NCBI GenBank assembly: GCA_021324755.1
Contig: JAJPIL010000027.1
Span: forward strand, 1,049-65,048
DNA: 64,000 nucleotides
Origin: Pseudomonadota bacterium
GTDB taxonomy: Bacteria > Desulfobacterota > Binatia > Binatales > Binataceae
Direction of reading: 5' to 3'
A program made the translations under genes and the position numbers. A model generated the notes under the pieces. That model was not told the origin of the DNA. It made no database searches and saw only the letters and a program-made list of their open reading frames with translations. How positions within the stretch are numbered: position 1 is the stretch's first letter; each line of letters begins with the position of its first letter. Positions 30,338 through 49,268 of the stretch are shown here, in pieces.

Positions 30338-30364
30338 CGACCGCGCGTCAGAAATTCGCTTTAA

Positions 30365-30904
30365 TTAACGAGCGTAGCCAGCGATGGGGATCGCGCTGGC
30401 TAAGACCTCTACCTGACCGTCCTTCACCCTTACAGGCAGCCGCACCAGTGGACGTTGCGGTGGGCCGGCCGCTACCGTTCCGTCGGCGTAAAAGACGCCA
30501 CCGTGGCAGGGACAGAGAAACATCTGGGCGCTCGCGATCCAGTGCACCGGACAGCCCAGATGGGTACAGTTCAGAGCAAACGCGATAAAATTGTTCACGT
30601 CGACTCGCCTTAGCCATGCCGCAGTCTGCGCCGTCACGCCGGCCCAGGCCAGCGGTGAAGGGTCGAGAAAGTCGACTTTGACGGTCTCTCCCACTTTGAA
30701 ATCATCGACGCGACCGACCTTTCTCCATACTCGGGGAAACTTCTGAATAAGTGGGCCGAGCACAAAACCGACCACCGGAATCGCGATGATCGCCGCGCTC
30801 AGCCCAGCTAGCGCGAGGCTCAGGCGCGCCAGGAAAATCCGCCGCCCGCAGTCCGCCTCGCGCGACCGATTCGGAACGCTTTGAGGATGGCTGTCATCGG
30901 TCAT
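30365..30904 (-). CDS. Rieske iron-sulfur subunit of the bc complex
   Basis: Tat-like GRRIFL plus TM helix; CTHLGC and CPCHGG motifs. Confidence 0.94.
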   Translation of the reverse strand: MTDDSHPQSVPNRSREADCGRRIFLARLSLALAGLSAAIIAIPVVGFVLGPLIQKFPRVWRKVGRVDDFKVGETVKVDFLDPSPLAWAGVTAQTAAWLRRVDVNNFIAFALNCTHLGCPVHWIASAQMFLCPCHGGVFYADGTVAAGPPQRPLVRLPVRVKDGQVEVLASAIPIAGYAR

Positions 30905-31121
30905 GGACCATCTCTCCAATCCAGTTTTTCAGTGCCACCACTGAGATTACAAAACCCGCCGCCGAGAAAACCCAAGAAGCAACGACACCCCACATCAACA
31001 GCGTCACGCCCATCGCGAGCATTGCCGGCGCGTAGGTGGGCTTGGGTATTGCCTGCTCCGGTGGCAAACTCCATTCCCCGAGTGTTTTGCTTGCGTTGTG
31101 GAGCGTCTGCTCCGCCGCCAT
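30894..31121 (-). CDS. small 2-TM protein, cytochrome c oxidase subunit IV (CtaF)-like
   Basis: 75 aa, IPKPTYAP followed by two hydrophobic helices ending W..E; GGAGG RBS; embedded in the cox/bc operon. Confidence 0.65.
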   Translation of the reverse strand: MAAEQTLHNASKTLGEWSLPPEQAIPKPTYAPAMLAMGVTLLMWGVVASWVFSAAGFVISVVALKNWIGEMVHDR

Positions 31122-31140: not shown

Positions 31141-31938
31141 CTACTTGTTCGCGCTGGCCGAAGCTTGAAACTGATACTCGCTATACCATCGGTGAAGAAC
31201 TACGAGTATCGCGCCAAGAAAGACGAAGCCGCCAGCGACCCACATGATTAGGCCCCCGAGTTGCTGATCGGTGGCGGGATCGAGCTCCCAGGAGTTCCGT
31301 ATTAGCGCCAAGATTCCAAAACTGTCGGTCGGGTTTGAGTACGCCGAGTAGAGCCCGGGCCGAGCAAAGGTAATTAGGATACCGAGCAAACTGCTCGAAA
31401 GAGCAGCCGTAAACAAATAAACGACCGACGGTGCTGTATTCAAACGAGAAGGCTCATGGGGCGTTACGAGCGGCCACCAAAATATAGTTGCAGTGGTAAG
31501 GAAAACCAGGTGCTCCAAAATGTGTATCCACTCGGCGGTCAGAGTAGCGTCGTAAAGCGCTGGGAGGTGCCAAACCCATAACGCCAGATTAAAACCGGTC
31601 CACGCCACTGGGGCCGAGCTCAAAAATTTCTCGAGCTGCGCGATTGGGCGCGCGCGAAGCAACGTGTTGACAAAGCTTTCGGAAACTCCCATGAGCAAAA
31701 GCGGCGGAACAACCAGTACCAGCAGAAGGTGCTGGACCATGTGCGCCGAAAAGAGATAATGGTCGGCCAGCACATCTATTGGTGAGACCAGCGCCAACAG
31801 CAGGAAAGCGTCACCGGCCAGGAAAAACGCGGCGCGCGTGGAATTCCATCCGTTGGTTGCTACGTATGCCGCAAACAGGAGCGTGCAACCGACTATCACC
31901 GAGGGCTCGAAGTCCCACTGAACGATAACCTTTTCCAT
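31141..31938 (-). CDS. ctaG: caa3-type cytochrome c oxidase assembly factor CtaG
   Basis: LFSAHMVQHLLL, WVWHLPALY, EH, DQQLGGLIMW. Confidence 0.92.
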   Translation of the reverse strand: MEKVIVQWDFEPSVIVGCTLLFAAYVATNGWNSTRAAFFLAGDAFLLLALVSPIDVLADHYLFSAHMVQHLLLVLVVPPLLLMGVSESFVNTLLRARPIAQLEKFLSSAPVAWTGFNLALWVWHLPALYDATLTAEWIHILEHLVFLTTATIFWWPLVTPHEPSRLNTAPSVVYLFTAALSSSLLGILITFARPGLYSAYSNPTDSFGILALIRNSWELDPATDQQLGGLIMWVAGGFVFLGAILVVLHRWYSEYQFQASASANK

Positions 31939-31941
31939 CGA

Positions 31942-32496
31942 CTAGACAAGCGAACCTAGGTATACAATCCCGAAAATCACAACCCACACTGCGTCGACGA
32001 AATGCCAATACATGCCGACCGCTTCGACCGCCTCCGCCTGTCGTTCTCGAACTAGGCCGCGCAGCACGAGTCCCGCCACTACCGCAAGCGCGCACAGTCC
32101 GACAAGAACGTGCAAGCCGTGAAAACCGGTCAACGTGAAGAACGTGGTGCCGAAAAGATTTCGGCTGATCGTCACGTCGTTGTGAAAAAGCCTTAGGTAC
32201 TCTCGTCCCTGACCGTATAAGAAAATCGCGCCGAGACCGATCGTTGCCACTAGCCAGGCAATTACTCGGTCGTATTGGCCGCGGCGCAGGTTCCGCTCGC
32301 TAAGCCAGAGAGTCGCGCTGCTGCTGAACAGACACAGCGAGTAGAAGGTCGTGGTAGGAATATCAAGACTGTCAGCAGCGTTAGGGCCGTTTTGGGGCTG
32401 CCCGTGATAGAACACGTAGGCGACGATCAGCAGCGCGAAAAAACTCGCCTCAGAAGCTATAAACAAGGCCATCGCGAGCTTTGCCTTGGAATACAT
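31942..32496 (-). CDS. ctaE: heme-copper oxidase subunit III (short form)
   Basis: FIASE, FFTLTGFHGLHV, YWHFVDAVW. Confidence 0.93.
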   Translation of the reverse strand: MYSKAKLAMALFIASEASFFALLIVAYVFYHGQPQNGPNAADSLDIPTTTFYSLCLFSSSATLWLSERNLRRGQYDRVIAWLVATIGLGAIFLYGQGREYLRLFHNDVTISRNLFGTTFFTLTGFHGLHVLVGLCALAVVAGLVLRGLVRERQAEAVEAVGMYWHFVDAVWVVIFGIVYLGSLV

Positions 32497-32507
32497 CGCA
32501 GCTCTTC

Positions 32508-34187
32508 CTACGCGTCTACTTTGCCAAGTTCATCGGCGAGCTCGGGATGCGCCAGATCCCATAACGGTCGGCGACCATGAATCGGCGGTATTCGCACGAA
32601 ATTCTCGACGGGCGGTGGCGACGTAGTGGCCCATTCCAAGGTCCACGCATCCCACGGATTATCGCCAGCTGTTTCGCCGTAGCGAAGACTCATAACGACG
32701 TTGTAGAGAAAAACCAGCATCGCAATTAAGAGCACGAATGCTCCTATGGTCGAAAGCATGTTGAAAGCGGCCCAGTACGGAAGGGCTGGATAAGTAAACA
32801 CCCGCCGCGGCATCCCCATCATTCCCAGAATGTGCTGGATGAAGAAGGTAAGATTGAGACCGACGAAGGTCAGCCAAAAATGCCACGAACCAAGCCTTTC
32901 GGATAACAGTCGGCCAGAAAACTTGGGGAACCAGTAGTAAATTCCCGCAAACGAGGCGAGAACGGTGCCACCAAAAAGAACGTAATGCATGTGTGCGACG
33001 AGGTAATAGGTGTCGGTCAGTTGCCAGTCGATAGGCACCACCGCGAAGCTCACGCCGGAGAGGCCACCGATCGTGAACATCACGATGAAAGCTACGGCAA
33101 ACTTCATCGCGGTGGTGAACCTCAGCTGTCCACCGTACATCGTGGCGGTCCAGTTGAAGATTTTTACGCCTGTCGGGACCGCGATCGACATGCTGGCGAC
33201 CGCGAAAAACAGGTTTGCTATATGTCCGAGCCCCACGGCGAACATGTGATGCGCCCATACGGTAAAGCTCAGAAACGCGATTGCCACGGTCGAGGCCGCG
33301 ACGAATTCGTAGCCGAAAATAGGTTTGCGCGAAAAGACTGGAATTATTTCCGAGATCATGCCGAACGCGGGCAGGATTACGATGTAAACTTCCGGATGGC
33401 CGAAGGCCCAGAAGTAATGCTGCCAAAGCAGTGCTGAACCGCCGCTTGCAGGCGTGAAGAAGTGAGCATGAAGTTGCCGGTCGATAAGCAGCATCACTAG
33501 CGCCGCGTTCAGGACAGGCAGGGCAAACAGCATGAGAAAAGCGTTAACGAAATTCATCCAGACAAATAGCGGCAGACGCTTCATCGTCATACCTTCGGCC
33601 CGGAGCGTGACGACGGTGACGATAATGTTGATCGCTCCCGCTACTGTGCCGATTCCAGCCACGATGAGGCTCAGGATCCAGTAGTCCTGGCCGCTTCGCA
33701 GCGAAAAGGCCGCCTCGCTAAGTGGCGTGTAGCTGAACCATCCCGCGCTGGGTGCTCCACCCGCGAAAAAGCTAAAGTAAAGCATAAGCCCGGCGAACAG
33801 GGTCAGCCAGAAGCTCATCGCATTGAGGCGCGGAAAGGCTACGTCGCGGGCCCCGATCATCAGCGGCACCAGATACACGGTGAATCCCGTCAGTAGCGGC
33901 ATCGCCACGAAAAAAATCATCGTCGTCCCATGCATCGTAAACAGAGCATTGAACGTTTCGGGCGACAGAAAGTGGTTGTTCGGTACCGCCAACTGAATTC
34001 TCATTAGCAAAGCCTCGATCCCGCCCAGGCCAAAAAAGACAAACGCGGCCACGATGTACATCAACCCCACCTGCTTGTGATCGACCGAGGCGACCCATCC
34101 AAGCAAACCTTCGTGCGAAAACCACCCCACGCGCTCGCGTTCACCTACCAGGCCGGCTATGCCTTCGGTAAACTCATGTCCTTTCAT
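32508..34187 (-). CDS. ctaD: cytochrome c oxidase subunit I, A1 type
   Basis: FTMHGT, GHPEVY, WAHH, VAHMHYV, GMPRR. Confidence 0.98.
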   Translation of the reverse strand: MKGHEFTEGIAGLVGERERVGWFSHEGLLGWVASVDHKQVGLMYIVAAFVFFGLGGIEALLMRIQLAVPNNHFLSPETFNALFTMHGTTMIFFVAMPLLTGFTVYLVPLMIGARDVAFPRLNAMSFWLTLFAGLMLYFSFFAGGAPSAGWFSYTPLSEAAFSLRSGQDYWILSLIVAGIGTVAGAINIIVTVVTLRAEGMTMKRLPLFVWMNFVNAFLMLFALPVLNAALVMLLIDRQLHAHFFTPASGGSALLWQHYFWAFGHPEVYIVILPAFGMISEIIPVFSRKPIFGYEFVAASTVAIAFLSFTVWAHHMFAVGLGHIANLFFAVASMSIAVPTGVKIFNWTATMYGGQLRFTTAMKFAVAFIVMFTIGGLSGVSFAVVPIDWQLTDTYYLVAHMHYVLFGGTVLASFAGIYYWFPKFSGRLLSERLGSWHFWLTFVGLNLTFFIQHILGMMGMPRRVFTYPALPYWAAFNMLSTIGAFVLLIAMLVFLYNVVMSLRYGETAGDNPWDAWTLEWATTSPPPVENFVRIPPIHGRRPLWDLAHPELADELGKVDA

Positions 34188-35218
34188 TTCGTGGTCTCCA
34201 GATATGCCACCAACGCGCGTACCTGCGCGTCGCTAAGATGAAAGTTGGGCATGTTGCTGCCCGGCTTGATTCGATCTGGGTCCTTAAGCCACTCGGCCAG
34301 TGTTTGGGGATTATTGACCGCTGCGCCACCGGCAAGCATCCGTCGTTGCGCCAGATGGGTCAGATCGGGTCCCGCGGTTTGATTCGCTCGCGTTCCGGCT
34401 AGGCGATGGCAGTTGACGCACGTGAGCTCATTGAAAAGCTTCATACCGGCGAGCGCTTCCGGCTCGCTCGGAGGCTGGGGAATTTTGAGCTGAGCTTGTT
34501 CCCAAGCCGTGAACTCTTCGGGAGACTGAACCACTACTTCAAAACGCATCCAAGCATGTTCTGTGCCGCAGAACTCGGCGCATATGCCGGAATAAACTCC
34601 GGGCCGGTCAGCTCTGAGCCACAAGTAGTTGGTGTGCCCAGGGATGGCGTCGATTTTGCGCCCTAATTGAGGCACCCAGAAGTCATGTATCACGTCTGCG
34701 GCCTCGAGCTGGATGAGCACAGCCTTACCCACTGGCAGATGAATCTCGTTCGCCGTGATTACGCCAGATTTGAGGTACTTTACTTCCCACCACCATTGAT
34801 GGCCGACTACGAGAAGATCGGCAGGACGCGTTCCTTTCTTTGGATTGGCCGCGCGCATAGTTTTGGCGGTGAAGACGAAAACCGTTGCCAGCAGACCGAT
34901 CGGAACTGCGGTCCACAAAAACTCGAGCTTACGCGAACCCGCCAACTGGCGCGGCATGGAACTTCCGGGGCGCTCGCGATAGCGGACAATAGCGTAAACC
35001 ACAAGACCGCTAACGAGCACAAAGATGACGGCAAGAATCACTAGGACTCCCAAAAAGAGCCTTGTGATCGCCGCGGCCTGGGGTGATACCGGATTTAGGG
35101 TATCTATGGAACTCAAATTGAAAACTTCAATCGCGCCGACGAAATCGAACAGCAGACGCAGTGCTGTTCGAGTCGGATGAGTTGTCAATATGCAAGTTCG
35201 CGAACAACCTTCGCTCAA
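34184..35218 (-). CDS. ctaC: cytochrome c oxidase subunit II with fused cytochrome c (caa3 type); true start probably about 100 nt downstream of the ORF start
   Basis: HQWWW, DVIHDFWVP, CuA ligands CAEFCGTEHAWM, CVNCH heme c and PGSNMP. Confidence 0.95.
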   Translation of the reverse strand: MSEGCSRTCILTTHPTRTALRLLFDFVGAIEVFNLSSIDTLNPVSPQAAAITRLFLGVLVILAVIFVLVSGLVVYAIVRYRERPGSSMPRQLAGSRKLEFLWTAVPIGLLATVFVFTAKTMRAANPKKGTRPADLLVVGHQWWWEVKYLKSGVITANEIHLPVGKAVLIQLEAADVIHDFWVPQLGRKIDAIPGHTNYLWLRADRPGVYSGICAEFCGTEHAWMRFEVVVQSPEEFTAWEQAQLKIPQPPSEPEALAGMKLFNELTCVNCHRLAGTRANQTAGPDLTHLAQRRMLAGGAAVNNPQTLAEWLKDPDRIKPGSNMPNFHLSDAQVRALVAYLETTK

Positions 35219-35223
35219 TCATC

Positions 35224-36024
35224 TTATTTCACGGGCGCAGCGTCAAGCCTTACGACCATACCACGCAGTCGCTCTTCTGCCGGCGGATATAATTCCATCA
35301 CGAGCGGGTCGTGTCCTGGGATGATATGATCAACGGAGTCGGCTAGCTGTTCTAGCTTTTGGTAGCCTTCGAGCATTTTCCCCACGTCGAGCACGATCGG
35401 GAACGGCCGTCTTTGTTGCAAGTTGGCGAAGAAATGGGTTGCGTCGGACGCCACCACGACCCATCCGCGCCGCGTCCTGACGCGCACGGCCTGCAGCCCC
35501 ATCGTATGCCCTCCTATCAGGTGGACGCTTATCCCTGGGGCAATTTCCGCGTCGCCCGAATAAAACTCCACGCGTCGCGCAAAGACCGCTCTGACAACTC
35601 CTACGACGTCGTCTACTTCGTAAGCAGCGGAGGTAAAATCGTACTTCATGTACCGGCCGGTCGCAAAGGCAATCTCGTGCTCTTGCAGATGGAAACGGGC
35701 GTTCGGAAAAAGATCACAATTGCCTGCGTGATCGTAGTGTAGATGAGTCAGGATTACGTCTACTTGGCGCGTTGCGTCGACCCCCAGTTCGCTAAGAGTC
35801 CGCACGGGGCAGCGCAGAAACTCTCTGCCGCGTTTAGCAGCCCTCGCTACGTTAAAACCGGTGTCGATTACAAAAGTACGCTCGTTATTTGTGGCGACCC
35901 AAACAAAGTAATCCATCGGCATCGGATAGTCGTGAGGATCGCCTCCGATGAAGTTCTCTGAGGCTTTGCGCTTATGGGTTGCGTATCGAACGGCGAATAA
36001 CTCATACACATCTGTTTGCGTCAT
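35224..36024 (-). CDS. metallo-beta-lactamase-fold N-acyl homoserine lactonase family protein
   Basis: DTGF, THLHYDHAG, GGHTMG, SDATH, PGHD. Confidence 0.88.
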   Translation of the reverse strand: MTQTDVYELFAVRYATHKRKASENFIGGDPHDYPMPMDYFVWVATNNERTFVIDTGFNVARAAKRGREFLRCPVRTLSELGVDATRQVDVILTHLHYDHAGNCDLFPNARFHLQEHEIAFATGRYMKYDFTSAAYEVDDVVGVVRAVFARRVEFYSGDAEIAPGISVHLIGGHTMGLQAVRVRTRRGWVVVASDATHFFANLQQRRPFPIVLDVGKMLEGYQKLEQLADSVDHIIPGHDPLVMELYPPAEERLRGMVVRLDAAPVK

Positions 36025-36442
36025 GTTTGCTCAATCCTCCCCACGCCGATTCCCGTTAAATCGCGCAAAACGGTGTAGGCTAAGTGGTTTGGCACGGACG
36101 ACCTTCGGGAAAGCAGGATTGTTACGACTTGCCTAGCTGGTGCAACCGCAGCATTTTTGACCGGGACCTCATTTAGACTGTCCGGATGAAAAGGATCGCT
36201 AAATTTGGGTTGTAATCATGGCCGCGCTATGCGACTAGCTCGCTCGATAAAGGTGTTAAAGCCCTTGGGTTTCGTAGGCGCCTGGGAGCAGACCGGCGAA
36301 TTGGCCGATTCGCTGCTGGCAGAACCTCTCAGCTAATAGAGCGCGCCGTTGCGGCTTGAACCGAGGAAGAAAGGCGTGGCAAAAACGCGCTGCTGAAGCT
36401 GGCACAAAAGCGCTCTTGAGCCACCCGCCACCGGTAAATCGC

Positions 36443-36838
36443 CTATCCGCCACCGCTTTGCTTTCGAGCTTCTTCCGCAAATACTTCGCGCGCGATTCGA
36501 AAACTATCGACCGCAGCCGGCACACCGCAATAAATCGCGGCCTGAAGAAAAATTTCCCTAATTTCCTCTTTGGTAACGCCGTTGTTGAGCGCGCCTCGCA
36601 CGTGAATCTTAATCTCGTGCGGGCGATTCAAAGCGGTGAGCATCGCAAGATTAAGCATACTTCGCACTTTGCGCGAAAGCCCCGGTCGATTCCAAATCTT
36701 GCCCCAGCAATATTCGGTTACCAACTCTTGCAGCGGCTGTGAGAACTCGTCTGCTTCGGCTATCGCTCGATCCACGTATTCCGCGCCCAACACTTCTCTG
36801 CGAGTTGCAAGTCCTTGTCGGTATAGTTCCTGTTCCAT
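36443..36838 (-). CDS. carboxymuconolactone decarboxylase (PcaC) family protein
   Basis: G..TRREVLG.EYV, YCWG.IW.RPGL, HVRGALNNG, AIYCGVPA. Confidence 0.92.
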   Translation of the reverse strand: MEQELYRQGLATRREVLGAEYVDRAIAEADEFSQPLQELVTEYCWGKIWNRPGLSRKVRSMLNLAMLTALNRPHEIKIHVRGALNNGVTKEEIREIFLQAAIYCGVPAAVDSFRIAREVFAEEARKQSGGG

Positions 36839-37077
36839 ATCGTACCCCCGAATCGTCGTCTAATGCGGCTAATTTAGGTTAGCTTAGCAAGTGATTCGCT
36901 GCCACACCTCGGATGGATGTTAGTTCTAGGATATCGTGATAAATGAGCGATGGAAGAGGTGACTGCGACCGCTCGGCAATGGCTTGGGCGCTGTCGCTTA
37001 AAAATGCGCGGGCTGAAAAGATAGGAAAAAAAACAGCTCCCAGCCCGCGCAATCAACCACAAGCTCTTTTAGCTAGA

Positions 37078-38823
37078 CTACTTGCGCAGCGCAAAAACCC
37101 AAACCACTCCTCCTTGGGGCACGTCTTTACGGTACTGTGGGTAGTCTTTGTTAAAGATATCTTGCACCCTCTGAGGATCGACTCCCCATCCTGACTGAAC
37201 CGCGATGTACTCGGTGCCGTCGACCTCGTAGGCGACTGGGGGAGCGATGATGCCAGAGTTGGTGGGATACTCCCACAACACGTCTCCGGTTTCGGCGTCA
37301 AACGCGCGGAACATTCGATCGTTGGTCCCGCCCATAAAGACCACGTTTCCCGCGGTCGCAAGGACGCCGCCAAAGTTATGTGAATTAGTGAATTTATGTA
37401 CCCAAACTTTTTTATTGTTCTTGATATCCCAGGCTTGGAGCTCGCCGATGTGGTCCGCGCCTTCGCGCACGTACGCCAAGTTGCGATCGATATCGACTCC
37501 GATAAATAGTTGCCCTGGCTCGTACGGACTAAGCTTGCCCACTAAATGGCTGCATAGGTTTTCGTTGGCTGGCACGTACAGTAGCCCGGTCTTCGGGCTA
37601 TAGGCTTCCAAAGCCCAGTCATCACCGCCCCATAGCGATGGGCAGAAGGAAGCCTCGCTCGTGCTTGACACGATATGCTTCGGGTCATACTGAGGTCGAC
37701 CGGTTTCGGGATCAAGGCTTGTAAAGACGTTTTGATAAACGAAGGGCTGAGCCGAGATGTAATTGATCTTGTCTGGGGCGCGTTCAAATTGCCACAGATA
37801 GCCGTCTCGTCCCGCGTGGACAAGTTCCTTGATCGTGCGCCCGTTCTTCTCGATATCGATCAGCAGTGGCGGTCGAACCTCGTCCCAGTCCCATCCGTCG
37901 TTCCATTGATACTGATGGTAGGCTTTGATAGCGCCGGTATCCGGATCGATGGCGAGCAACGAAGTGGCATAGAGGTTGTCGCCTTTGCGCACGTCAGGCG
38001 GCCATGGTCCCGGATTGCCCGTTCCCCAGTACACCAGATTGAGTTCCGGGTCGTAGTTCCCGCTCATCCAAGCGGGTGCGCCGCCGTGTTGCCAAGAGTC
38101 GCCGGCCCATGACTCGTGGCCCGGCTCACCTGGTCCAGGGATCGTATATGTTTTCCACAAGGGTTTGCCGTCTTTGGCGTCGAAAGCAGCGATGAAGCCG
38201 CGGATGCCGTATTCACCACCCGAACTCCCCACTATTACCTTACCCTTGACGATAAGTGGCGCGCAGGTCATGTAGTAGCCTTTTTTGTAATCTTCAACCG
38301 CGCGGTCCCAAACCACCTTGCCCGTTTTGGCATCCAAAGCGATCAGGTGCGCGTCGGTAGTGGTGAAGTAAACCTTGTCGTCGTAAAGCGCGACGCCGCG
38401 ATTGGTCGGATGCAGCTGAAACAGGTCTTCTGGCAGTTGCTTGCGATAGCGCCAGAGGGCGTTGCCCGTTTTAGCGTCAAGCGCGATCACTTGAGCCTGA
38501 GGAGTGGAGACGAACATTATGCCGTTGTTGACGATGGGTGGCGATTCGTGGCCCTCGGTGACGCCCGTGGAGAATAACCATACAGGCACCAAGTTCTTGA
38601 CGTTGTCGCGGTTAATCTGGTCGAGCGGACTGTAGCCCCATCCGTTGTATGTGCGTCTTATAAGCAGCCAGTTCTCCGGTTCAGGATTCGAAAGGCGCGA
38701 ATCGGTGACGGGAGTGTAATTCGAAAGATCGGCGGCCAATCCGGCAAGCGCAAAAGTACCGAGAATCCCGATCGTCGCGCAAATAGCTAAAAGTGCAAGC
38801 CGACCGCGTTTCATTGGTTCCAT
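37078..38823 (-). CDS. PQQ-dependent dehydrogenase, methanol/ethanol-family fold, atypical active site
   Basis: Sec signal, repeated ALDAKTG..W propeller motifs, SPLDQIN, GGEYG, WGTGNPGPW, WDWDE. HPTNRG occupies the position of CCDxVNRG. Confidence 0.93.
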   Translation of the reverse strand: MEPMKRGRLALLAICATIGILGTFALAGLAADLSNYTPVTDSRLSNPEPENWLLIRRTYNGWGYSPLDQINRDNVKNLVPVWLFSTGVTEGHESPPIVNNGIMFVSTPQAQVIALDAKTGNALWRYRKQLPEDLFQLHPTNRGVALYDDKVYFTTTDAHLIALDAKTGKVVWDRAVEDYKKGYYMTCAPLIVKGKVIVGSSGGEYGIRGFIAAFDAKDGKPLWKTYTIPGPGEPGHESWAGDSWQHGGAPAWMSGNYDPELNLVYWGTGNPGPWPPDVRKGDNLYATSLLAIDPDTGAIKAYHQYQWNDGWDWDEVRPPLLIDIEKNGRTIKELVHAGRDGYLWQFERAPDKINYISAQPFVYQNVFTSLDPETGRPQYDPKHIVSSTSEASFCPSLWGGDDWALEAYSPKTGLLYVPANENLCSHLVGKLSPYEPGQLFIGVDIDRNLAYVREGADHIGELQAWDIKNNKKVWVHKFTNSHNFGGVLATAGNVVFMGGTNDRMFRAFDAETGDVLWEYPTNSGIIAPPVAYEVDGTEYIAVQSGWGVDPQRVQDIFNKDYPQYRKDVPQGGVVWVFALRK

Positions 38824-38914
38824 TCCTCCCCCTTTTTAGTCGTTTCGTTCGCCTAGAATAGGCGGTGGCGTAGCCTTGGATGGCTGTTGTTAGCCGAGTT
38901 TCGCGCGCTTGTGT

Positions 38915-39520
38915 TCAGCTTCCCTGCGCGCCCAGTCGACCAATGAATTTGCCTGCCACGACCAGCGTGCCATCGACTGACTTAAGCGGAAGAATTGCCA
39001 GTCTGAAATGAGTCGGACCTCTAAGCACTTCGGCCTGATTGGCCGCGTCGTACTGCGAGCCATGGCATGGGCATTGAAGAACATTGCGCTCCGGGAACCA
39101 TTCCGTCACCGGACACCCTTCATGAGTACACACTGCCGAATACGCTACGACGCCCTGTGCAGAACACTCGCGAGTGGTCGGTGAAAGACGTTGCGGGTCG
39201 AGCTTCAGCAAAAGCAGCCGATTAAGCCGAGTTCCGTCGCGCACAAGCTTTGACTTGGGCTCCATCGGCCAAGCAAAGACAATAGGACCACCAAACGGCA
39301 GCGCTGAGACCTCAACCAGCTTGCCAGCGCGCGGCCCCGCCGCAAAAACAAGCAAGTCTCCAGGCTGAGGATGGAGACTTCGTGGGTCGCTTTCTCCCGC
39401 AAGCAGATTGTCGGTTACAGATACGCAGATCGCCCCAACTAGCAGTTTAAGGGCTGTGCGGCGAGCTAGCTTCGGGCTCCAGTCCCGACGCTGAAGATCC
39501 GAGTCGTCCGCTGGCGGCAC
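38915..39520 (-). CDS. Tat-exported Rieske [2Fe-2S] protein (standalone)
   Basis: GTG start with GAAGGGGG RBS, ARRTALK twin-arginine signal, CTHEGC and CPCHGSQY. Confidence 0.88.
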   Translation of the reverse strand: MPPADDSDLQRRDWSPKLARRTALKLLVGAICVSVTDNLLAGESDPRSLHPQPGDLLVFAAGPRAGKLVEVSALPFGGPIVFAWPMEPKSKLVRDGTRLNRLLLLKLDPQRLSPTTRECSAQGVVAYSAVCTHEGCPVTEWFPERNVLQCPCHGSQYDAANQAEVLRGPTHFRLAILPLKSVDGTLVVAGKFIGRLGAQGS

Positions 39521-39885
39521 GTTCAGCACCCCCCTTCGGTCGATAACTCGGAAAATAAGCCCCGTAACCCCCAAGAAGCGGGACGCTTTAATGCTATAGC
39601 CAAAAAGTGAGCAAATCAAGGCAGGGTCAAAATTGCCGCTCAAAGGCGCTTTCGTGCTATGTTTGTGGCAACGCTTGAGCGAGCTCGTGCGAAAACGTGG
39701 CTAACGAGCAGTAAACGTTCATGTTTTTCGGTGCTCAAAACTAGCGCGGTGCCCGTCGCTTGTTTCGTCGTTTGCGCAAGCTTGCTACGAAATAGATAAA
39801 ATGCGAGTTTCTCCTGCAAAATTAGGGTTTCAGCTGCTCGGTCTGAGGGGCGTTTCCAGCAGCACTTTGCTCGGGAGGGATTCAT

Positions 39886-41097
39886 ATGCCAGGTCCGCTT
39901 AGTGGGATTCGCGTGGTCGAAGTCGCGATGTGGGTGGCTGGACCTTCGGCTGCGGTTGTGCTGGCTGACTGGGGCGCGGAGGTAATTAAGCTCGAGAATC
40001 CAAAGGGAGGTGACCCGTATCGCGGCTTGAGGATTCACTCCGTTGGCTCAAAGAACCAGGAGATCAGCGCGGGCTATGAACTTGACAACCGCAATAAGCG
40101 TTCTGTCGCAGTGGATCTAAAGCACCCGCAGGGATACGAATTTGCCCTGCGGCTGATTGAGCGGGCCGACGTTTTTATAACCAATTTAAGGCTTGACGCG
40201 CTCGAACAGATGAAGCTTACCTACGCGGCTTTGTCGCAGCGCAACCCACGACTGGTTTACGCCAGTTTGAATGCTTACGGACACTTCGGCCCCGACCGAC
40301 TGCGGCCCGGTTTCGACTACGCGGCTGGCTGGGCGCGGTCAGGCTTGATGGCGTCGGTCGCCGAGCCAGGCTTTCCGCCTCCAGCGCAACGTCCAGGGAT
40401 GATCGATCATGCCGCGGGTCTGGGTCTGGCGGGAGCGATTTGCGCTGCGTTGCTCGGCCGTGAACGTTCAGGTAAAGGATGCGAAGTAAATCTGTCGCTG
40501 TTCTCCATGGCGCTGTGGATGAATGCCACCGACCTCACGATAGGTTTGATCAGCGGCGAGGCTCCGGGGCCCGAAAGCAGAAGCGACCGACCGAATCCTT
40601 TGTGGAATTCCTACCAGTGCAAAGACGGCCGTTGGATATATTTCGTGATGATCCAGGATAGCCGCCATTGGCAAGATTTCTGCGCCGCACTGGGCCAGCC
40701 TCAATGGGTCGAAGATCCTCGCTTTCGCGACTCGCGGGCGCGCCACAACCATAGACGAGAGCTCATCAGGGCAATCGAGGAGGTCATCGCTACGCGCACA
40801 AGAGATGAGTGGGCGCCAATCTTTGACCGGCACGGGCTTTTTTGGGCACCGGTGCAAAGCAATGCAGAGGTTTTGGCTGATCCGCAAGCCAATGCGATCG
40901 GCACGTTTGTTCCCGTAATCGAAGATAACGCCACCCGTTGCCGCGTAGTTAATAGCCCTGTGCGATTCAGTTCAGGCAGTAATGAGCCTTATCGAGCTGC
41001 TCCCCACTTGGGACAGCATACGGAAGAGGTGGCCCTCGAACTCGGGCTTACGTGGAAGGACATAGCGCGCCTAAAGGAAGAGGGCGTATTTGGCTAG
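39886..41097 (+). CDS. family III CoA-transferase (CaiB/BaiF)
   Basis: PLSGIRVVE, LADWGAEVIKLE, NRNKRS, catalytic Asp in GMID, APHLGQHT. Confidence 0.95.
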   Translation: MPGPLSGIRVVEVAMWVAGPSAAVVLADWGAEVIKLENPKGGDPYRGLRIHSVGSKNQEISAGYELDNRNKRSVAVDLKHPQGYEFALRLIERADVFITNLRLDALEQMKLTYAALSQRNPRLVYASLNAYGHFGPDRLRPGFDYAAGWARSGLMASVAEPGFPPPAQRPGMIDHAAGLGLAGAICAALLGRERSGKGCEVNLSLFSMALWMNATDLTIGLISGEAPGPESRSDRPNPLWNSYQCKDGRWIYFVMIQDSRHWQDFCAALGQPQWVEDPRFRDSRARHNHRRELIRAIEEVIATRTRDEWAPIFDRHGLFWAPVQSNAEVLADPQANAIGTFVPVIEDNATRCRVVNSPVRFSSGSNEPYRAAPHLGQHTEEVALELGLTWKDIARLKEEGVFG

Positions 41098-41983
41098 AAG
41101 CCTGACGGCTAAAAAGCAAGAATTGCTTCTGTTTCCGCTCGTCAGGTCCAGAGCTCGCGGAAAAGTTTCCATCACGCACAATAAGCCTTTCTGCACAGCG
41201 CTGTCAGAAGCAGCCGGTTGGCCTCGCAAGGTTTTAACGGCCACAGAGTCGGTCAAGCAGTCGCTATGTTGAGCTTTATGTTATCCCATCGCCCTAGTCC
41301 CACACTGACTTTGTTCGTGTGCTACTTTTGAGTAGCTAATTGGTTCTGTCAGCTTCCAGGTTTTTTGATTGGAGAGCGAAATCTGCTTTACTTGCATCCT
41401 CGGTCGAAGCTGGCGTGGGAGCATTCGTCTAACACAAAGGCTCTGAGTTCCAGATCCCCGGTGCCGGCACTGAGAAGCCCAATTCGATCGCAAGTTTATA
41501 AACTTTTTAAGCTTTACGAGCTTGGTATCGTGCGCTTTCAAATAAGGAAAGATTAAGCCTCAGTGGTGTTGTGGCTGAGACTATGCCTTGCCTAATTGCC
41601 AAAGGAAGTCGCTACGCTTCGATTAATGCTTGGTTCGATTTCGGGAAGTGAATTTTGCTTTGTGAGATTGCCGCCCTTTAATAGGGCGGGATAAGACGAT
41701 TGCACAGAGACCAAAGAACGAAACGGGCGGGAACGCTCAGGCGTGGCTAAAAGACCGGTAGAGAAACGCACGTTTTGATGAGCAACGTTATATCTGCGGG
41801 CGGAACTGTAATTGGAAGAAGTGCGCTCAACTTCACGGAGCGCTTGCGAAATTAGTAAGATTGATAGCGCTATGCTGGGCAAATTTATGTAGTGAAAAAG
41901 AAAAAGTAAAATTGGCAATTGACTCCGGTAGGGTGTGGGAACACTGGAAGTTGAACACGATGGGGAGTCCGCAACGCCGAGCG

Positions 41984-43147
41984 ATGGATAACAAGCAAAG
42001 CATCTTCAAGACCTTAGTGAGCGTCGCCGCGTTGGCCGCTTTTTGCATAATCGGCGCGCCCGGTGCCTCAACGCAAACGAGCTGGAAGGTTTTGGCTTAC
42101 TACGGCGGAAAAGACGATTCTTCCGCGTACGCCGACGCGGAGAATCCGGCAGTCAGGGAAGAGACGTGGGTTTCGCCCGCACCAGTTGGGGATTACGCTA
42201 TCGGGGCGATAATGCCTCAACTTTTCAATGATCCTTACTGGCTGGCGGTCACGTACGGAATCGTCGAAGAAGGGCGACGGCTTGGCCTTGACGTCAGCCT
42301 GTCGGCCGAGGGAGAGATCGGGAAGATCTCGCTGCAAATCAGAAGGGTAGAAGAGCGAATGAATCGACTACTGGACGGGGCAATTCTCGCTGCGGCCAAT
42401 TACCCAGCCACTAATGAGGTGGTGGCTAAAGTGACCGCTCAAGGAATCCCAGTCCTTGCTTTAGTAAAGGGGCGTAATCCCTCGAAAATTTTAGCCAAGG
42501 TTGAGGTCTCTCCCCGTCGCAGAGGTTATCTGGCGGGAACTTTCGTCGCGCATCAAGCGACCAGTAGGACTGCGCCTGTCGATGTAGTTATTTTGGCGGG
42601 GCCAGCCGGCTCCGATTGGGCCCCATCTATAGCGGAAGGTTTTAGACGAGCTGTAAATAAATTGGCTCCCGGCAAGATTCGCATATTGGACGAAAGATGG
42701 GGCGACATGGACAAATACATACAGCTCGAACTGGTAGAGAGCGCGCTGGCTGCTTTTAAGCACATCGACTACCTTATCTGCAATGCTGTTGCCGCCGAGG
42801 TCGCTCCCGCAGCGATAGAAGCCGCAGGTAGAACTAAAGAAGTGAAAGTGATTTCCGCGTACATTACACCGACAGTCTGGAAACAGGTGGCGTTCGGCAA
42901 GATAGCGGCCGCGATAGTCGGTTTTCCGGTACTTCAGGGCAAGATGGCGGTGGACATGCTCGCGATGTTGCTCCAGGGCAAACAGGTCGGCAAGCAGGTT
43001 CCCCTGTGCGCGGGTCCGAAGCTTGCCCTGTTAACGCCCGATAATTATATGGTTTTTCCGACCGATGGACTTTTTGCGCCGCAGCACTGGCGGCCAGTGT
43101 TCGCTTTGAATGCGGGCACGGAAAGTACAGAGCCAACCATTCCGTAA
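41984..43147 (+). CDS. TorT-like periplasmic solute-binding protein (type I PBP)
   Basis: Signal peptide after ATG 41984; DPYWLAVTYG..EE..RLG resembles TorT DSYWLS.NYG; GPAGSDW, WGD..K..Q..LVE, NAVAAE. Confidence 0.75.
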   Translation: MDNKQSIFKTLVSVAALAAFCIIGAPGASTQTSWKVLAYYGGKDDSSAYADAENPAVREETWVSPAPVGDYAIGAIMPQLFNDPYWLAVTYGIVEEGRRLGLDVSLSAEGEIGKISLQIRRVEERMNRLLDGAILAAANYPATNEVVAKVTAQGIPVLALVKGRNPSKILAKVEVSPRRRGYLAGTFVAHQATSRTAPVDVVILAGPAGSDWAPSIAEGFRRAVNKLAPGKIRILDERWGDMDKYIQLELVESALAAFKHIDYLICNAVAAEVAPAAIEAAGRTKEVKVISAYITPTVWKQVAFGKIAAAIVGFPVLQGKMAVDMLAMLLQGKQVGKQVPLCAGPKLALLTPDNYMVFPTDGLFAPQHWRPVFALNAGTESTEPTIP

Positions 43148-43317
43148 AGCGCAAGGGTCATCTCACCCCCGAAGCAGATCGGCTAAATCGACGAATTTGT
43201 GAACCACGAAAGCGCCCGACATTGCCGCGTAATTAAACGCGAAAATTCGCTCCACGAAACTCGGGCGGCGCAAGTTCGGGGTGTACCTCGCGCACCGGTT
43301 AAAGCGGCTCGTTCGAC

Positions 43318-44850
43318 TTAACGCCTCTCCAAGTGCTTGAGAAGTCTAAGCTGACCGCTATCGCCCGGAAGCAGGTGGGCTTTGCGCAGCGATTCGCCCG
43401 TGGCCTCCTCGTATGCGGCCCTGGCTACCTCGTAAGCGTACAGTGAATTGATATACCGCACGGAGTCTGCCACAAAACGCTGCTCGGCCACCTGTACGTC
43501 CACGGTATTACCGAGCTGGCGCCGGTAACGTACTTGAGCGAGCTCGTACTCGAGTTGGGAGGCGTCACGAGCTGCCTTCGCGGCGCGAATCTCGTCCAGC
43601 GAAGCCTGCCAGTTGAGCAAGGCCGTCTGAGTCTCTAGGATGATTCGCTGCTCGGTGTCTTCGAGGGCGTGACGAAAAGCCTCCTTGCGATATTTTGCTT
43701 CTGCCACCTGGCTTACCGTTTCGAAGCCGTTGAAAATCGGCCAGTTAGCGACCAGACCGACCGCATAATTAGGCACCGAACTCATCCCTGGACCAGGCTG
43801 GCCACCATAGCCGACCTGCATGTAGTTGCCATAAGCGTAAAGCGTGGGGAAGAAATCGCTACGCGCTTGCACTATCTGCCGGTCAGCAGCCTGGATAAGA
43901 TCCTCCAACATAGTGATATCAGGTCTAAGTTTAAAGGCGAGCTTTACCGCATCCTCCACCTTTTGCGTTATAGGGCGGTCGCTCCATACGGCCCGAAGCC
44001 GATAGGGCGGCGCCGCGCCGCTGAGCCCCATCGCGTTATCCAGCGCGACTTTGGCGTCAGCCTCGGCGTTAAGCGCCTCCACCAGATGAAATCGCGCGCG
44101 CTCGAGGTCCGACTTGAAAACGTAGACGTCAAGCTTGGGTCGAAGGTCAGTTCGTGCGAGGATCTCGGCCAAGCGCATCTCTTCGTTACGCGCGTTGACC
44201 GCCTCCTGGTAGACGCGCACGATCTCGTGGGTTGCCAAAAGCCACCAGTATCGCTTTTCGACCTCGAAGATTATCTCGAGCTCAGTAAAAGCGAGCTTGG
44301 CCACGGCTGCGTCATGCTCGTACTTGCGCTGGTCGATAAAGCCGCGTACTCGGCCGAAGTCGTAAAGCCATTGAGAAAAGTTAATCCCCGAGAAATATGT
44401 CGACTGGATCCGGGAAAGGCTCCACGATGGACTGGTAGGTTGGTTGATTTCGCCGGTCCCCCGAGGATTAAACCCAAAGGGCACTGTGCTGAGCAAAACA
44501 TTAGCCGCGCCGACGCTGTTTGCAGTGCCATTCAAGTTTTGCAGCGTGCCGTACACTTGGGTGAGCGCCGCTGATCTCGCCTCTCCTACCTTTGCTGTTG
44601 CCACTCCCACTTCCGAGCGTCTTTGAAGTATTCGCGGGTGGTAATGCAGCGCAATCTGGATAGCGCGCTCGAGCGTAAGTTCGGAATTCGGCTTTATCGG
44701 CATCTCAGCCGGTTGCATCGGCACTTTGTCGGACTTTATCGCAAGCTGGTTAGGTGTAACGGGCAAACGGCGCGGTTCGATCGGAACTTCCTGGGCGGTG
44801 GCCACCCCAGCAGAAAGGGCGACCAGCGTGATTATTATAAGTATCAGCAT
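43318..44850 (-). CDS. TolC-family outer membrane efflux protein
   Basis: Signal peptide, LTLERAIQIAL, LYDFG, RPD, PIFNG, two OEP repeats. Confidence 0.92.
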   Translation of the reverse strand: MLILIIITLVALSAGVATAQEVPIEPRRLPVTPNQLAIKSDKVPMQPAEMPIKPNSELTLERAIQIALHYHPRILQRRSEVGVATAKVGEARSAALTQVYGTLQNLNGTANSVGAANVLLSTVPFGFNPRGTGEINQPTSPSWSLSRIQSTYFSGINFSQWLYDFGRVRGFIDQRKYEHDAAVAKLAFTELEIIFEVEKRYWWLLATHEIVRVYQEAVNARNEEMRLAEILARTDLRPKLDVYVFKSDLERARFHLVEALNAEADAKVALDNAMGLSGAAPPYRLRAVWSDRPITQKVEDAVKLAFKLRPDITMLEDLIQAADRQIVQARSDFFPTLYAYGNYMQVGYGGQPGPGMSSVPNYAVGLVANWPIFNGFETVSQVAEAKYRKEAFRHALEDTEQRIILETQTALLNWQASLDEIRAAKAARDASQLEYELAQVRYRRQLGNTVDVQVAEQRFVADSVRYINSLYAYEVARAAYEEATGESLRKAHLLPGDSGQLRLLKHLERR

Positions 44851-44889
44851 GGCTGATAGCGCTCTACTTTCGTGTTTTTTGCGTCGTGT

Positions 44890-46095
44890 CTACCTAGTTG
44901 GCGCGGTCGTCGTTGGCCGTGAAGACCCACCATCCTCGATACCCCATACGCGCACCTTGATCGGTACAGGCTTGACGACAGTGCCGTCAGCAAGGGATTC
45001 GTCAAGAGGGTAGGCGACCATTTGGTCGTCCCTAAGACCGGACGTAATCTCGATCATCCGTCCGTCGCTATATCCGGTTTTCACTGGCACTCTACGGATA
45101 CGGTTGTTCTCCACGACCTGAACGTAGGCGTTCGTGACCGTGACGCCAAGGGTGCCAGCAAGTCCGCCCACAGACTTTATTGGGAGTTGGATGGCGTGCG
45201 GATGGCGGTCGAGCTCGAGCGTTACATCAGCGTACATACGCGGATAGTATTTGTGTTCGGGGTTTTTGATATCGATTTCGGTTAACATCGTGCGCGTGGC
45301 TAGGTCTAAAGCTGTTTGGATTCGGGTGACATTTGCGTAAATCGGTTGTTGCGGCATGGCACGCAACACAATACGGGCGGGAGTTCCCGGATGCACGAAA
45401 TAACTTTCTTGCTCTGGCGTGTATACGTATACGCGCATTGTGTCGATGATCGCCTCCGACAGTATCACTCGGGCTCCACCTAGATGACCTCCCGCTCCTT
45501 CGAGAGCTCCGGTGCTAACTTCAGCGCCCGTGTGCGCGATGCCGAAGTCTCCGCCGCCAGCCCTGATGAGCGTCCCTGGGTCGACGTACCGACCGGTGAT
45601 TACCCCGTCGAAGGGCGCGTAAATTTTAGTGTAGCCAACCATCGCTTCGAGCTCGTGCACATTGGCTTTGGAAATCTCTTCTTTCGCGTAGGCGATGTCA
45701 ACGGTCTCTTTGGCAATTAGACGGTCGTCAAAGTCACGCGCCTCCTTGAGCCGGATCCAGGTGAGCCAGTCGATCTGGTGTCTTGCTCGCGCGCGCTGGA
45801 GGTTAGCTTCCAGCTCTGGTACCCAGATTTTAGCCAACAGTTGGCCTTTCTTGACCCAGTCGCCTTTGTCGACACGCAGGTCCTCCAGATAGCCTGTGAC
45901 CTTGGCATAAATTGGGGCTTCGTAGTATCCGACGAGGTCACCTGGCAGCGTAATCGTGCGGACCGCGTCACGACGAACCGGGTGAATGACCGCCACTTCG
46001 AACGTCTTCTTGCTGGTCGTTTCGGTCTTGGTGCATCCCGCAAGGATGAGCGTCACCAACAATCCTAGTGTGATTGCGAGTCTAGAGCGCCTCAT
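44890..46095 (-). CDS. RND membrane fusion protein (lipoprotein)
   Basis: LAGC lipobox, AKVTGYL..VDKGDWVKKGQLL, IYAPFDGVIT. Confidence 0.93.
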   Translation of the reverse strand: MRRSRLAITLGLLVTLILAGCTKTETTSKKTFEVAVIHPVRRDAVRTITLPGDLVGYYEAPIYAKVTGYLEDLRVDKGDWVKKGQLLAKIWVPELEANLQRARARHQIDWLTWIRLKEARDFDDRLIAKETVDIAYAKEEISKANVHELEAMVGYTKIYAPFDGVITGRYVDPGTLIRAGGGDFGIAHTGAEVSTGALEGAGGHLGGARVILSEAIIDTMRVYVYTPEQESYFVHPGTPARIVLRAMPQQPIYANVTRIQTALDLATRTMLTEIDIKNPEHKYYPRMYADVTLELDRHPHAIQLPIKSVGGLAGTLGVTVTNAYVQVVENNRIRRVPVKTGYSDGRMIEITSGLRDDQMVAYPLDESLADGTVVKPVPIKVRVWGIEDGGSSRPTTTAPTR

Positions 46096-49000: not shown

Positions 49001-49268
49001 TTATGATGCTGTTGCCGTAAAGGGAGCGCGAAGTAATGTACTTTATGCCGGTGCCGAGCGTAAAAAAGCGCTCATCTACCGAGGTAATCGCATATTCGAT
49101 GTCGACCGGAGAGTAGCCAGGGAAGATGGTGTCTACTGCGCATGCCTTGATGTTGAGGTTCGGAAAGATGTCAATCGGGATGCGAGCAAAAGCGGTGGCG
49201 CCAAGAATACTGGCGATCAACAAGACCACAATAATAAAGTGCGGATTGCGAAGGGCAAAACCAGGCAT
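46092..49268 (-). CDS. RND efflux permease (AcrB/CusA/NolG-like)
   Basis: 1058 aa, IPIDIFP, LNIMTLGG..AVG.L.D....ENI, RMRPILMT, TLFLVP. Confidence 0.95.
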   Translation of the reverse strand: MPGFALRNPHFIIVVLLIASILGATAFARIPIDIFPNLNIKACAVDTIFPGYSPVDIEYAITSVDERFFTLGTGIKYITSRSLYGNSIINVYFHDDVQLDGATADIAVLAMSDLFFLPPHAQPPIVLEYGPETAIPVLLVAVSGPFNETQLMDQARFNVRNFLGTVEGAEAPYPFGGKIPQVMTYITRPDLQARGITPWDVVNALNGQSQVYPSGDAKIGNLDYFVTTDLKIPHPRQLNPVPVKIGANQAPLYYGDVGSGELDAELQYNKVLIDGQPGVYVGVLKQPGANTVAVVRGVEELLPHITGMPAGMKLKAIFSQIDVILDALNSLEREAGSGTILAALMILLFLGSFRSTFVMTLSIPISILAAGFIIYMLGATLNIMTLGGFTLAVGRLIDNSVVVIENINRHLAEGATPEKAALEGANEVSLAVLAATVTTVIVFFPVIFLYGLAKYMFSALALALTLAMFASYGVAMTLVPIYSRRFLRTEEAQRLEAMAHGGAAGEGSRNVFVIFNRYYARFAHAYERALTKALDHKLLLIGTIALIFVASMMLVPRLGTQYFPRVDAGKFIINLRMPTGTRLELTTEAAQHIDKIIRRIIPPEDLDTVVANLGVPPTMTAMYMVNSTEDTGQIFVGLTHEHKGSTFKYMDQVREAIRKEMPEVKIFFSSASIVDAVLNFGSLAAIDAQIIAPMNYSWDYIFKIGQQVRNLLSTVPEVKDAFLQQVGGYPTLHVKIDRVRAARLGVSALDVVNNLITAINNNMMIARNVWINPDFGQLYFLSSQYREQDINSLDSLLDIPVGHGTLNRPWGTGSGHEQSITLRMVADVESTSMPAEADHYNIQRVVDVLVDPTTEDLGGTLSAVKKRLAPLKLPRDISIEYRGSVESMQKSLVSFGYGMILATVLLYLVMVAQFRSFLDPFIIMFAVPMGLVGVVWTLFLTHTTLNIESFMGIIFMIGIVVSNSILFVDFANVRLRAGHPLRQAVVEAARIRMRPILMTALATIMGLIPMALALERGSEASAPLARAAAGGLLVSTIFTLFLVPAVYEFFHARREGKK

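Follow-up and report, generated by a model that had tools for sequence, protein, structure and literature searches.

Periplasmic alcohol and methanol dehydrogenases that depend on pyrroloquinoline quinone (PQQ) all pass their electrons, where they have been characterised and to our knowledge, to a c-type haem, and membrane glucose dehydrogenases pass theirs to ubiquinone. A different arrangement is found in a 64,000-nucleotide stretch (the window) of contig JAJPIL010000027.1, from a genome of the family Binataceae (assembly GCA_021324755.1). Here a gene for a Rieske [2Fe-2S] protein (38915-39520) is followed, after a 91-nt spacer, by a gene for a PQQ dehydrogenase (37078-38823), both on the minus strand. 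The dehydrogenase lacks the vicinal Cys-Cys pair of its relatives. Judged by gene order and sequence comparison, the Rieske gene and the Cys-Cys-less PQQ dehydrogenase gene are a conserved two-gene module that occurs across phyla. The Rieske protein is probably the dedicated electron acceptor of the dehydrogenase, replacing the usual cytochrome c. Comparative genomics supports a Rieske-coupled quinoprotein module well; the case for a link to the nearby caa3 oxidase and for a causal role of the missing disulfide is weaker.

The described systems closest to this locus resemble it in part. The window enzyme shares with PedH/ExaF (6zcv, 6zcw; cytochrome c550 PedF/ExaB) a periplasmic propeller and the GGE, GNP, Asp-x-Asp and Arg ligands, but it lacks Cys-Cys (QLH stands in the loop) and has no adjacent cytochrome c or MoxJ-like gene, a Rieske gene being present instead. 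XoxF-XoxJ-XoxG and MxaFI-cytochrome cL belong to the same family. The genome has its own XoxF-like/MoxJ-like/cytochrome c cluster on contig C29; the window enzyme is 35% identical to this XoxF-like paralogue but is devoid of Cys-Cys and has another type of partner. The Thermus thermophilus Rieske protein (1NYK, 3FOU), a subunit of the menaquinol:cytochrome c bc complex, is membrane-anchored and encoded beside cytochrome b. It has the same box I and box II motifs and disulfide cysteines as the window Rieske, but reads CPCHGGVY (Gly for Ser) where the latter, encoded beside a PQQ dehydrogenase, reads CPCHGSQY. AioB is likewise a bc-like Rieske protein, exported by the twin-arginine translocation (Tat) pathway, that serves a periplasmic dehydrogenase; it feeds cytochrome c or azurin. 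Its sequence kinship to the window Rieske is distant (33.8 bits), and its catalytic partner is a molybdopterin enzyme, whereas the partner of the window Rieske is a quinoprotein.

The dehydrogenase belongs to the methanol/ethanol dehydrogenase family and bears a general secretion (Sec) signal. It is 581 aa long (578 aa in gene call P0005, from ATG 38814) and matches TIGR03075 with 614.9 bits (cut-off 480.05) and PF01011 with 267.5 bits. Its closest solved relative is PedH (6zcv), with 376.8 bits over residues 21-580. When it is aligned to PedH 6zcv, the type II alcohol dehydrogenase (ADH) 1kv9 and four paralogues from the same genome, the vicinal Cys-Cys is seen to be missing: the loop LFQLHPTNRG (residues 134-143; 38395-38424, minus strand) replaces the loop Cys-Cys-Asp-x-x-Asn-Arg-Gly. 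These alignments agree with an initial annotation made from the DNA alone, which had placed LFQLHPTNRG where relatives have Cys-Cys and had reported that the protein contains no CxxCH; none is present. Related dehydrogenases with 49-81% identity and a [LF]-H-x-[TV]-[NS]-R-G loop are here called the clade. His138, Thr140, Arg142 and Gly143 of the loop are invariant within it. The placement of His138 against Cys-Cys-Asp depends on the aligner: HMMER opens a gap of one residue there, and MAFFT, applied to the paralogues of the source genome, opens one of three.

The residues that bind PQQ and the metal are retained. E204 (GGE), N270 (GNP), D312, R142 and R339 align with PedH and the four paralogues, and across 90 clade sequences each PQQ or metal ligand residue is either invariant or conserved to at least 90%. 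For E204, N270, D312, D314, R142 and R339 we assume the ligand and catalytic roles of the MxaF and PedH structures. Asp312-Trp-Asp314 (37882-37890, minus strand) comprises the catalytic Asp and the lanthanide-type extra Asp; WDWDE aligns with PedH WDFDG, and D312 is invariant and D314 at least 90% conserved in the clade. The extra Asp two residues past the catalytic Asp is the sequence mark of the lanthanide-dependent subgroup (XoxF/ExaF/PedH). A branch containing Methylobacterium, Chenggangzhangella, Paracoccus and Alteromonas has Asp-x-Ala instead of Asp-x-Asp; thus, the clade is not uniformly lanthanide-type. The PQQ synthesis genes pqqC and pqqE, which the initial annotation had suggested looking for, are present above cut-offs on contig C29. 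With TIGR03075 above its cut-off, the ligands kept and pqqC and pqqE present, the dehydrogenase looks active, as far as can be predicted from sequence. An 'empty' quinoprotein without PQQ was rejected on its TIGR04528 score (387.6 against a cut-off of 650) and the presence of pqq genes.

The Rieske gene encodes 201 aa (gene call P0125, Pfam PF00355). It starts at GTG 39520, 5' of which lies the Shine-Dalgarno-like stretch GAAGGGGGG; the mechanical open reading frame (ORF) covers 38915-39643 on the minus strand, extending up to TTG 39643. The spacer (38824-38914, minus strand) holds the ribosome-binding site of the dehydrogenase gene, GGGGGAGG, and no terminator-like site was found in it; a promoter and terminator scan gave no more sites than in shuffled sequence. 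The gap between the two genes is 91 nt to the first dehydrogenase ATG, as initially annotated, and 100 nt to the called start. Residues 1-41 of the Rieske protein (39398-39520, minus strand) form a Tat-type signal region with the motif A-R-R-T-A-L-K (twin Arg at 39458-39463) and a possible cleavage site after L-L-A. Among 128 homologues, both R20 and R21 are conserved to at least 90%. Box I, CTHEGC (39113-39130, minus strand), contains the ligands Cys131 and His133 and the disulfide Cys136; box II, CPCHGSQY (39050-39073, minus strand), contains the disulfide Cys150, the ligands Cys152 and His153, and Ser155 and Tyr157. The six Cys and His residues (C131, H133, C136, C150, C152, H153) are invariant in the 128 sequences, and S155 is at least 90% conserved. 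The protein therefore has the bc-type boxes CxHxGC and CxCHxS with both disulfide cysteines, and its description as a Tat-exported Rieske protein stands. So does the reported difference between CPCHGSQY and the CPCHGGVFY of the bc Rieske encoded 8 kb away. The further claim that Ser and Tyr confer a high potential is valid for the window copy and not for the whole family: box II of 22 tabulated members reads C-x-C-H-x-S-x-[Y/F], with Ser in all 22 and the aromatic position split evenly between Tyr (11) and Phe (11).

The signal region of the window Rieske reaches a maximum 19-residue hydropathy of 1.64, compared with 2.43 for the anchor of the window bc Rieske. The family median is 1.47 (117 sequences scored, of which 38 reach 1.6), and the typical signal region consists of the twin Arg and a weakly hydrophobic stretch, often followed by Ala-x-Ala. 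Because these regions are weakly hydrophobic, most family members look cleaved, soluble and periplasmic; for the window copy, the sequence is borderline between a cleaved signal and a membrane anchor.

Among solved Rieske proteins, that of T. thermophilus (1NYK/3FOU) is the best match, at 141 bits; over 151 residues, which include the N-terminal subdomain, the identity is about 50%. All others, such as QcrA (49 bits) and AioB (34 bits), score far below it. The AioB profile TIGR02694 gives 35.5 bits, below its cut-off of 95.65, and the partner is a PQQ enzyme, not the molybdopterin protein AioA. No cytochrome b gene adjoins the window Rieske gene, and the cytochrome b of the genome has its own Rieske protein. 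The initial annotation had likewise credited the window Rieske with no cytochrome b, and a cytochrome b/cytochrome c fusion gene (28895-30337, minus strand; 480 aa, with a C-terminal cytochrome c domain) indeed adjoins the second, bc-type Rieske gene (30365-30919, minus strand; box CPCHGGVFY). Another genome of the same phylum, G028, encodes a multihaem cytochrome c - Rieske - cytochrome b operon (locus L070, G028:C109:9501-12932; 217-3130, minus strand), whose Rieske protein has the box CHCHTGLYD and is 35% identical (tblastn) to the PQQ-linked Rieske of the window. The Thermus match and the position of the G028 Rieske gene between cytochrome c and cytochrome b genes point to kinship with bc iron-sulfur subunits. 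By sequence, the Rieske family either descends from the iron-sulfur subunits of Rieske/cytochrome b complexes or is their sister group.

The pairing of the two genes is conserved in both directions of search. A scan of genome contigs with the dehydrogenase gave 59 loci. The Rieske gene lies immediately upstream on the same strand in 21 of the 25 clade loci, and three other clade loci (L019, L020, L049) are ended by a contig edge. None of the 34 non-clade loci (at most 48% identity, mostly Cys-Cys) has a Rieske gene beside the dehydrogenase gene. Conversely, metagenomes were scanned with the Rieske alignment, and the best 80 of 569 loci were examined: 64 have a clade dehydrogenase directly downstream on the same strand, and 7 have less than 250 nt of downstream sequence, which leaves 73 testable loci. 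The gap between the paired genes is 25-175 nt in most Rieske-selected metagenome loci. Conservation of the adjacency, proposed in the initial annotation as a check, is thus seen in 21/25 clade loci and 64/73 testable Rieske-selected loci, against 0/34 outside the clade. The two proteins also diverge together, with a Mantel r of 0.882 between dehydrogenase and Rieske distances over 63 non-identical pairs (at least 520 and 145 aligned residues, respectively, two exact duplicates dropped); none of 2000 permutations reaches this value. Chance adjacency is rejected by the forward, reverse and co-divergence tests.

When ORFs were clustered, the Rieske cluster was present in 22 of 23 sources; neither among these nor among 87 sources did any other real gene cluster extend across lineages. 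A third conserved component was rejected: the small ORFs downstream are mutually unrelated, except for a Cys-rich protein of Paracoccus and Alteromonas, and most of them have no match in Pfam. Of 301 genomes sampled from the same phylum, two gave a match to the Rieske query, one of them being the source genome. Since the only other match is the bc-complex Rieske of G028, the module is rare among the 301 same-phylum genomes sampled.

The source genome contains five members of the dehydrogenase family (tblastn), and the four other paralogues all keep Cys-Cys and Asp-x-Asp. The XoxF-like paralogue on contig C29 (715 bits) lies beside the pqq genes and is accompanied by a MoxJ-like protein above cut-off and then a cytochrome c. 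The paralogue on contig C19 is partnered by a MoxJ-like/cytochrome c fusion and one on contig C24 by a small cytochrome c, and a second copy on C24 has no partner within 4 kb. Of the four Cys-Cys paralogues, three are thus adjoined by a c-type cytochrome of their own, and two of these three by a MoxJ-like protein as well. The fifth member, which lacks Cys-Cys, has no adjacent cytochrome c or MoxJ-like gene and alone among the five has a Rieske gene. No CxxCH-containing ORF of at least 60 aa occurs within 35201-44000, and no MoxJ/XoxJ-like gene is found among the neighbours (CoA-transferase, PcaC-like carboxymuconolactone decarboxylase and metallo-beta-lactamase-fold genes), in agreement with the initial annotation, which had seen no cytochrome c or MxaJ/XoxJ-like gene beside the pair. 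The fusion protein of contig C19 (329633-330907, minus strand, genome G000; 633-1907 in L157) has 424 aa, with a MoxJ-like periplasmic binding domain and a C-terminal cytochrome c domain, and its gene lies directly 3' of that of the Cys-Cys-type PQQ dehydrogenase.

Cultured bacteria also contain the pair. RefSeq-annotated pairs are present in Roseomonas marmotae, Azoarcus sp. KH32C, Alteromonas macleodii Te101, Paracoccus yeei and Deinococcus aetherius. The gene order is Rieske, dehydrogenase, 2Fe-2S protein and molybdopterin protein in R. marmotae, and Rieske, dehydrogenase and aldA in Azoarcus sp. KH32C. P. yeei and A. macleodii Te101 have an inverted order, with the dehydrogenase gene first. 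On the plasmids of these two, the Rieske gene is followed by a gene for a secreted Cys-rich protein of about 150 aa (L068, 7247-7687, in P. yeei; L153, 6045-6506, in A. macleodii); the two Cys-rich proteins are 34% identical to each other and are missing from the other loci, being confined to the branch with inverted order and Asp-x-Ala. Plasmid pMaq22A_1p of Methylobacterium aquaticum 22A carries two clade copies (144162-145828 and 449314-451089), both with a Rieske gene upstream.

The two M. aquaticum copies (50% and 55% identity) sit where Maq22A_1p30675 (adh6) and 1p32165 (adh4) are expected. In PMC7356819, adh4 and adh6 of M. aquaticum 22A are assigned to "PQQ-ADH type 6a", a family that "has not been characterized". 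The clade is therefore probably the "PQQ-ADH type 6a" of the Keltjens 2014 classification, matched through expected locus-tag positions on an unannotated plasmid record. Passages of PMC8561711 state that Cys-Cys is missing in some minor members of groups 7 (type 6a), 8 and 9, and type 6a is mentioned in Methyloversatilis in a passage of PMC6028718. The word Rieske was not found in the accessible portions of PMC7356819, PMC8561711 and PMC6028718. The Binatota genome paper, in the sections consulted, describes xoxFJG and no Rieske partner, and in the retrieved excerpts of the quinoprotein literature Rieske proteins appear only in reference lists or as a bc1 subunit. No description of a Rieske/PQQ dehydrogenase pairing was found in the searchable full-text literature, a scope that excludes supplementary files and Keltjens et al. 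2014; this agrees with the initial annotation, to which no characterised example of such a class was known.

What was observed is the order of the genes, their motifs and conservation, the co-divergence of the two proteins and the presence of genes for PQQ synthesis. The path of the electrons and the proteins between which they pass, the substrate and the use of a lanthanide are inferred as follows. The Sec-exported, eight-bladed-propeller PQQ enzyme, with its lanthanide-type ligands, would oxidise an alcohol (most likely not methanol or ethanol) to an aldehyde. Such a reaction fits the aldehyde-oxidising genes that lie 3' of the pair in several lineages, namely aldA in Azoarcus and Paracoccus and a 2Fe-2S protein with a molybdopterin enzyme in Roseomonas; a molybdopterin-binding large subunit (MoCoBD) is encoded near the pair in 10 of 87 sources. 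The enzyme-bound PQQH2 would be reoxidised in two one-electron steps by the Tat-exported, bc-type, disulfide-bearing Rieske protein, which in the clade would take the role played by cytochrome cL, XoxG or c550 in Cys-Cys relatives. The reduced Rieske protein would then pass its electron to a c-type haem, in this genome most plausibly that of the adjacent caa3 cytochrome c domain, or to a soluble cytochrome c. We also advance, tentatively and with slightly more doubt than confidence, a fuller scheme. In it, a Rieske head domain from Rieske/cytochrome b complexes was released to the periplasm and oxidises PQQH2 directly, by a Qo-site-like proton-coupled transfer via its exposed His ligands. It would represent a third class of quinoprotein acceptor besides cytochromes c and ubiquinone, in a widespread, mostly lanthanide-type route of alcohol oxidation (type 6a).

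Several results speak against parts of this scheme or against a strict dependence of the enzyme on the Rieske protein. The D. aetherius dehydrogenase on plasmid pDAETH-2 has SCCDVVNRG and WDYDGV, and so keeps Cys-Cys beside a family Rieske. Because this Cys-Cys enzyme has a Rieske partner, the missing disulfide is not what requires the Rieske protein. The D. aetherius pair (L154, NZ_AP026562.1 271112-279770; locus 2871-5165), whose Rieske protein is 36% identical and is encoded upstream of the Cys-Cys PQQ dehydrogenase, may be an intermediate form. In a Gemmatimonadota metagenome-assembled genome (L016), the clade dehydrogenase has no Rieske gene within 5.6 kb upstream or 4 kb downstream, and the window Rieske query found no match anywhere in the assemblies of L016, L019 and L049, whose completeness is unknown; clade dehydrogenases can thus do without the Rieske protein. 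The dehydrogenase, in turn, is absent from the flank in 9 of the 73 testable Rieske-selected loci (best 80 of 569); these nine represent about five lineages, and five of them are near-identical contigs. The initial proposal of a new Rieske-coupled quinoprotein class accordingly holds as regards a conserved two-gene module across phyla and is weakened as regards the tie between the missing disulfide and the Rieske protein, which is not strict, given the Cys-Cys pair of Deinococcus and the three clade genomes in which no such Rieske was found.

Other points concern contact, the next acceptor and the substrate. Co-divergence, as measured on the sequences, indicates that the pair moves as a unit and not that the proteins touch, since it is expected for co-inherited or co-transferred genes. 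No Rieske-dehydrogenase fusion was found among longer proteins, which is weak evidence. Prediction of the complex with our own alignments gave a score of 0.32 (runs 0.32, 0.55 and 0.18), compared with 0.11 for the best of three controls; at least 78% of contacts are common to the runs, and the partner predicted local distance difference test (pLDDT) value is at least 89. Among 80 solved complexes, 58 attain the mark used for such predictions, as do 2 among 110 mismatched pairs; these counts are rough with own alignments. At 0.60 or less, only 7 of the 80 solved complexes attain it, along with both passing mismatches. The check by complex prediction suggested in the initial annotation therefore puts the pair above the controls, but it lends a predicted complex weak support and gives no interface. 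The layout of CoA-transferase, pair and caa3 genes recurs among genome loci only in L008 and L009 (80-81% identical), and a metagenome locus, L071 (80% identical), has flanking gene clusters in common with the window. Because this synteny is lineage-specific (L008, L009 and L071 only), the caa3 step is weak: the initial annotation correctly placed a caa3 operon near the pair, but its choice of the caa3 haem c as next acceptor is not matched by the other loci. Methanol and ethanol growth is reported in section 3.2 of PMC7356819 only for strains keeping xoxF1 or exaF, and M. aquaticum 22A strains keeping only adh4 or adh6 are not among the growers listed there.

Some of the same evidence would suit a Rieske protein that is a tightly bound subunit of a heteromeric, AioAB-like enzyme, the holoenzyme reducing an external cytochrome c or cupredoxin. 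Same-strand adjacency with 25-175 nt gaps in most loci and co-divergence of the two proteins are compatible with it, as is, weakly (0.32 against 0.11), the predicted complex, with its partner pLDDT of at least 89 and at least 78% of contacts shared by three runs. We nevertheless regard a bound subunit as rather unlikely: the interface scores are low and differ from run to run (0.18-0.55), Paracoccus and Alteromonas have the two genes in the opposite order, a Rieske protein is missing in some clade members, and no fusion was found. The kinship of the Rieske family raises another question, namely whether the protein is an alternative iron-sulfur subunit of a membrane Rieske/cytochrome b complex that is merely co-regulated with a dehydrogenase using another carrier. 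Its closest characterised relative is the Thermus bc-complex Rieske, the related G028 protein is encoded in a cytochrome c - Rieske - cytochrome b operon, the signal hydropathy of the window copy is borderline (1.64), and a bc complex is encoded 8 kb from the pair. That complex, however, already has a Rieske protein encoded beside it, whose anchor is strong (2.43), and family signal regions are mostly weakly hydrophobic and often followed by Ala-x-Ala. No cytochrome b occurs among annotated neighbours at Rieske- or dehydrogenase-selected loci, and the dehydrogenase is present in 64 of 73 testable Rieske-selected loci, so that such a role is very improbable.

Still less credible, and given hardly any weight here, is a reverse flow, with the Rieske protein as the donor that reduces the PQQ protein or restores its activity, whether to drive a reductive reaction or to handle a cofactor or metal. 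The sequence does not fix the direction of electron flow, the substrate of the enzyme is not established, and the single-gene strains of M. aquaticum were not reported to grow on methanol or ethanol. Yet the disulfide, Ser155 and Tyr157, all features of a high potential, would leave the Rieske protein poorly suited to reduce PQQ, the enzyme has lost none of the catalytic residues of its alcohol-oxidising relatives, and aldehyde-oxidising genes follow the pair in several lineages.

If the Rieske protein does serve as dedicated acceptor, quinoproteins would be wired in a new way. A function could then be assigned to a large and uncharacterised clade, mostly of lanthanide type, whose members occur in soil metagenomes and in cultured Methylobacterium, Azoarcus, Roseomonas, Paracoccus, Alteromonas and Deinococcus; the debate over what the vicinal disulfide does in electron transfer would be affected too. 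For bioelectrochemical uses of PQQ enzymes, the Rieske protein would provide a high-potential [2Fe-2S] partner that is small and soluble. The idea is directly testable in several culturable hosts, and M. aquaticum 22A deletion strains exist (PMC7356819).

The genes around the pair are of mixed type, and the locus has no anomaly in GC content. Upstream, in divergent orientation, lies a family III CoA-transferase gene. Downstream, a PcaC-like gene of the carboxymuconolactone-decarboxylase (CMD) family (36443-36838, minus strand) encodes 131 aa that score 165.2 bits against a PcaC equivalog cut-off of 155.7; no further pca genes occur near it. A CMD-family gene is likewise close to the pair at locus L018. 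The next gene (35224-36024, minus strand) encodes a metallo-beta-lactamase-fold, lactonase-like protein that has weak lactonase-family matches only and no obvious signal peptide as judged by eye. It was considered and rejected as a quinoprotein relay hydrolase, the match to TIGR04559 being weak (E 0.0013, 18.2 against 280 bits). Its 3' end is 5 nt ahead of the start of caa3 subunit II; with so short a gap, it is probably co-transcribed with the caa3-type oxidase. The oxidase operon (31141-35218, minus strand) encodes COX2 with a cytochrome c domain, then COX1, COX3 and CtaG; subunit II (34184-35218, minus strand), which has that domain at its C-terminus, is the putative downstream acceptor. 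Directly 3' of this operon are the Rieske/cytochrome b complex genes (28895-30919, minus strand), whose Rieske protein lacks the Ser and is of the low-potential type. Further upstream of the pair, an ordinary-looking resistance-nodulation-division (RND) efflux operon at 43318-49268 (minus strand) encodes an AcrB-like protein of 1058 aa, a membrane-fusion protein and an outer-membrane factor.

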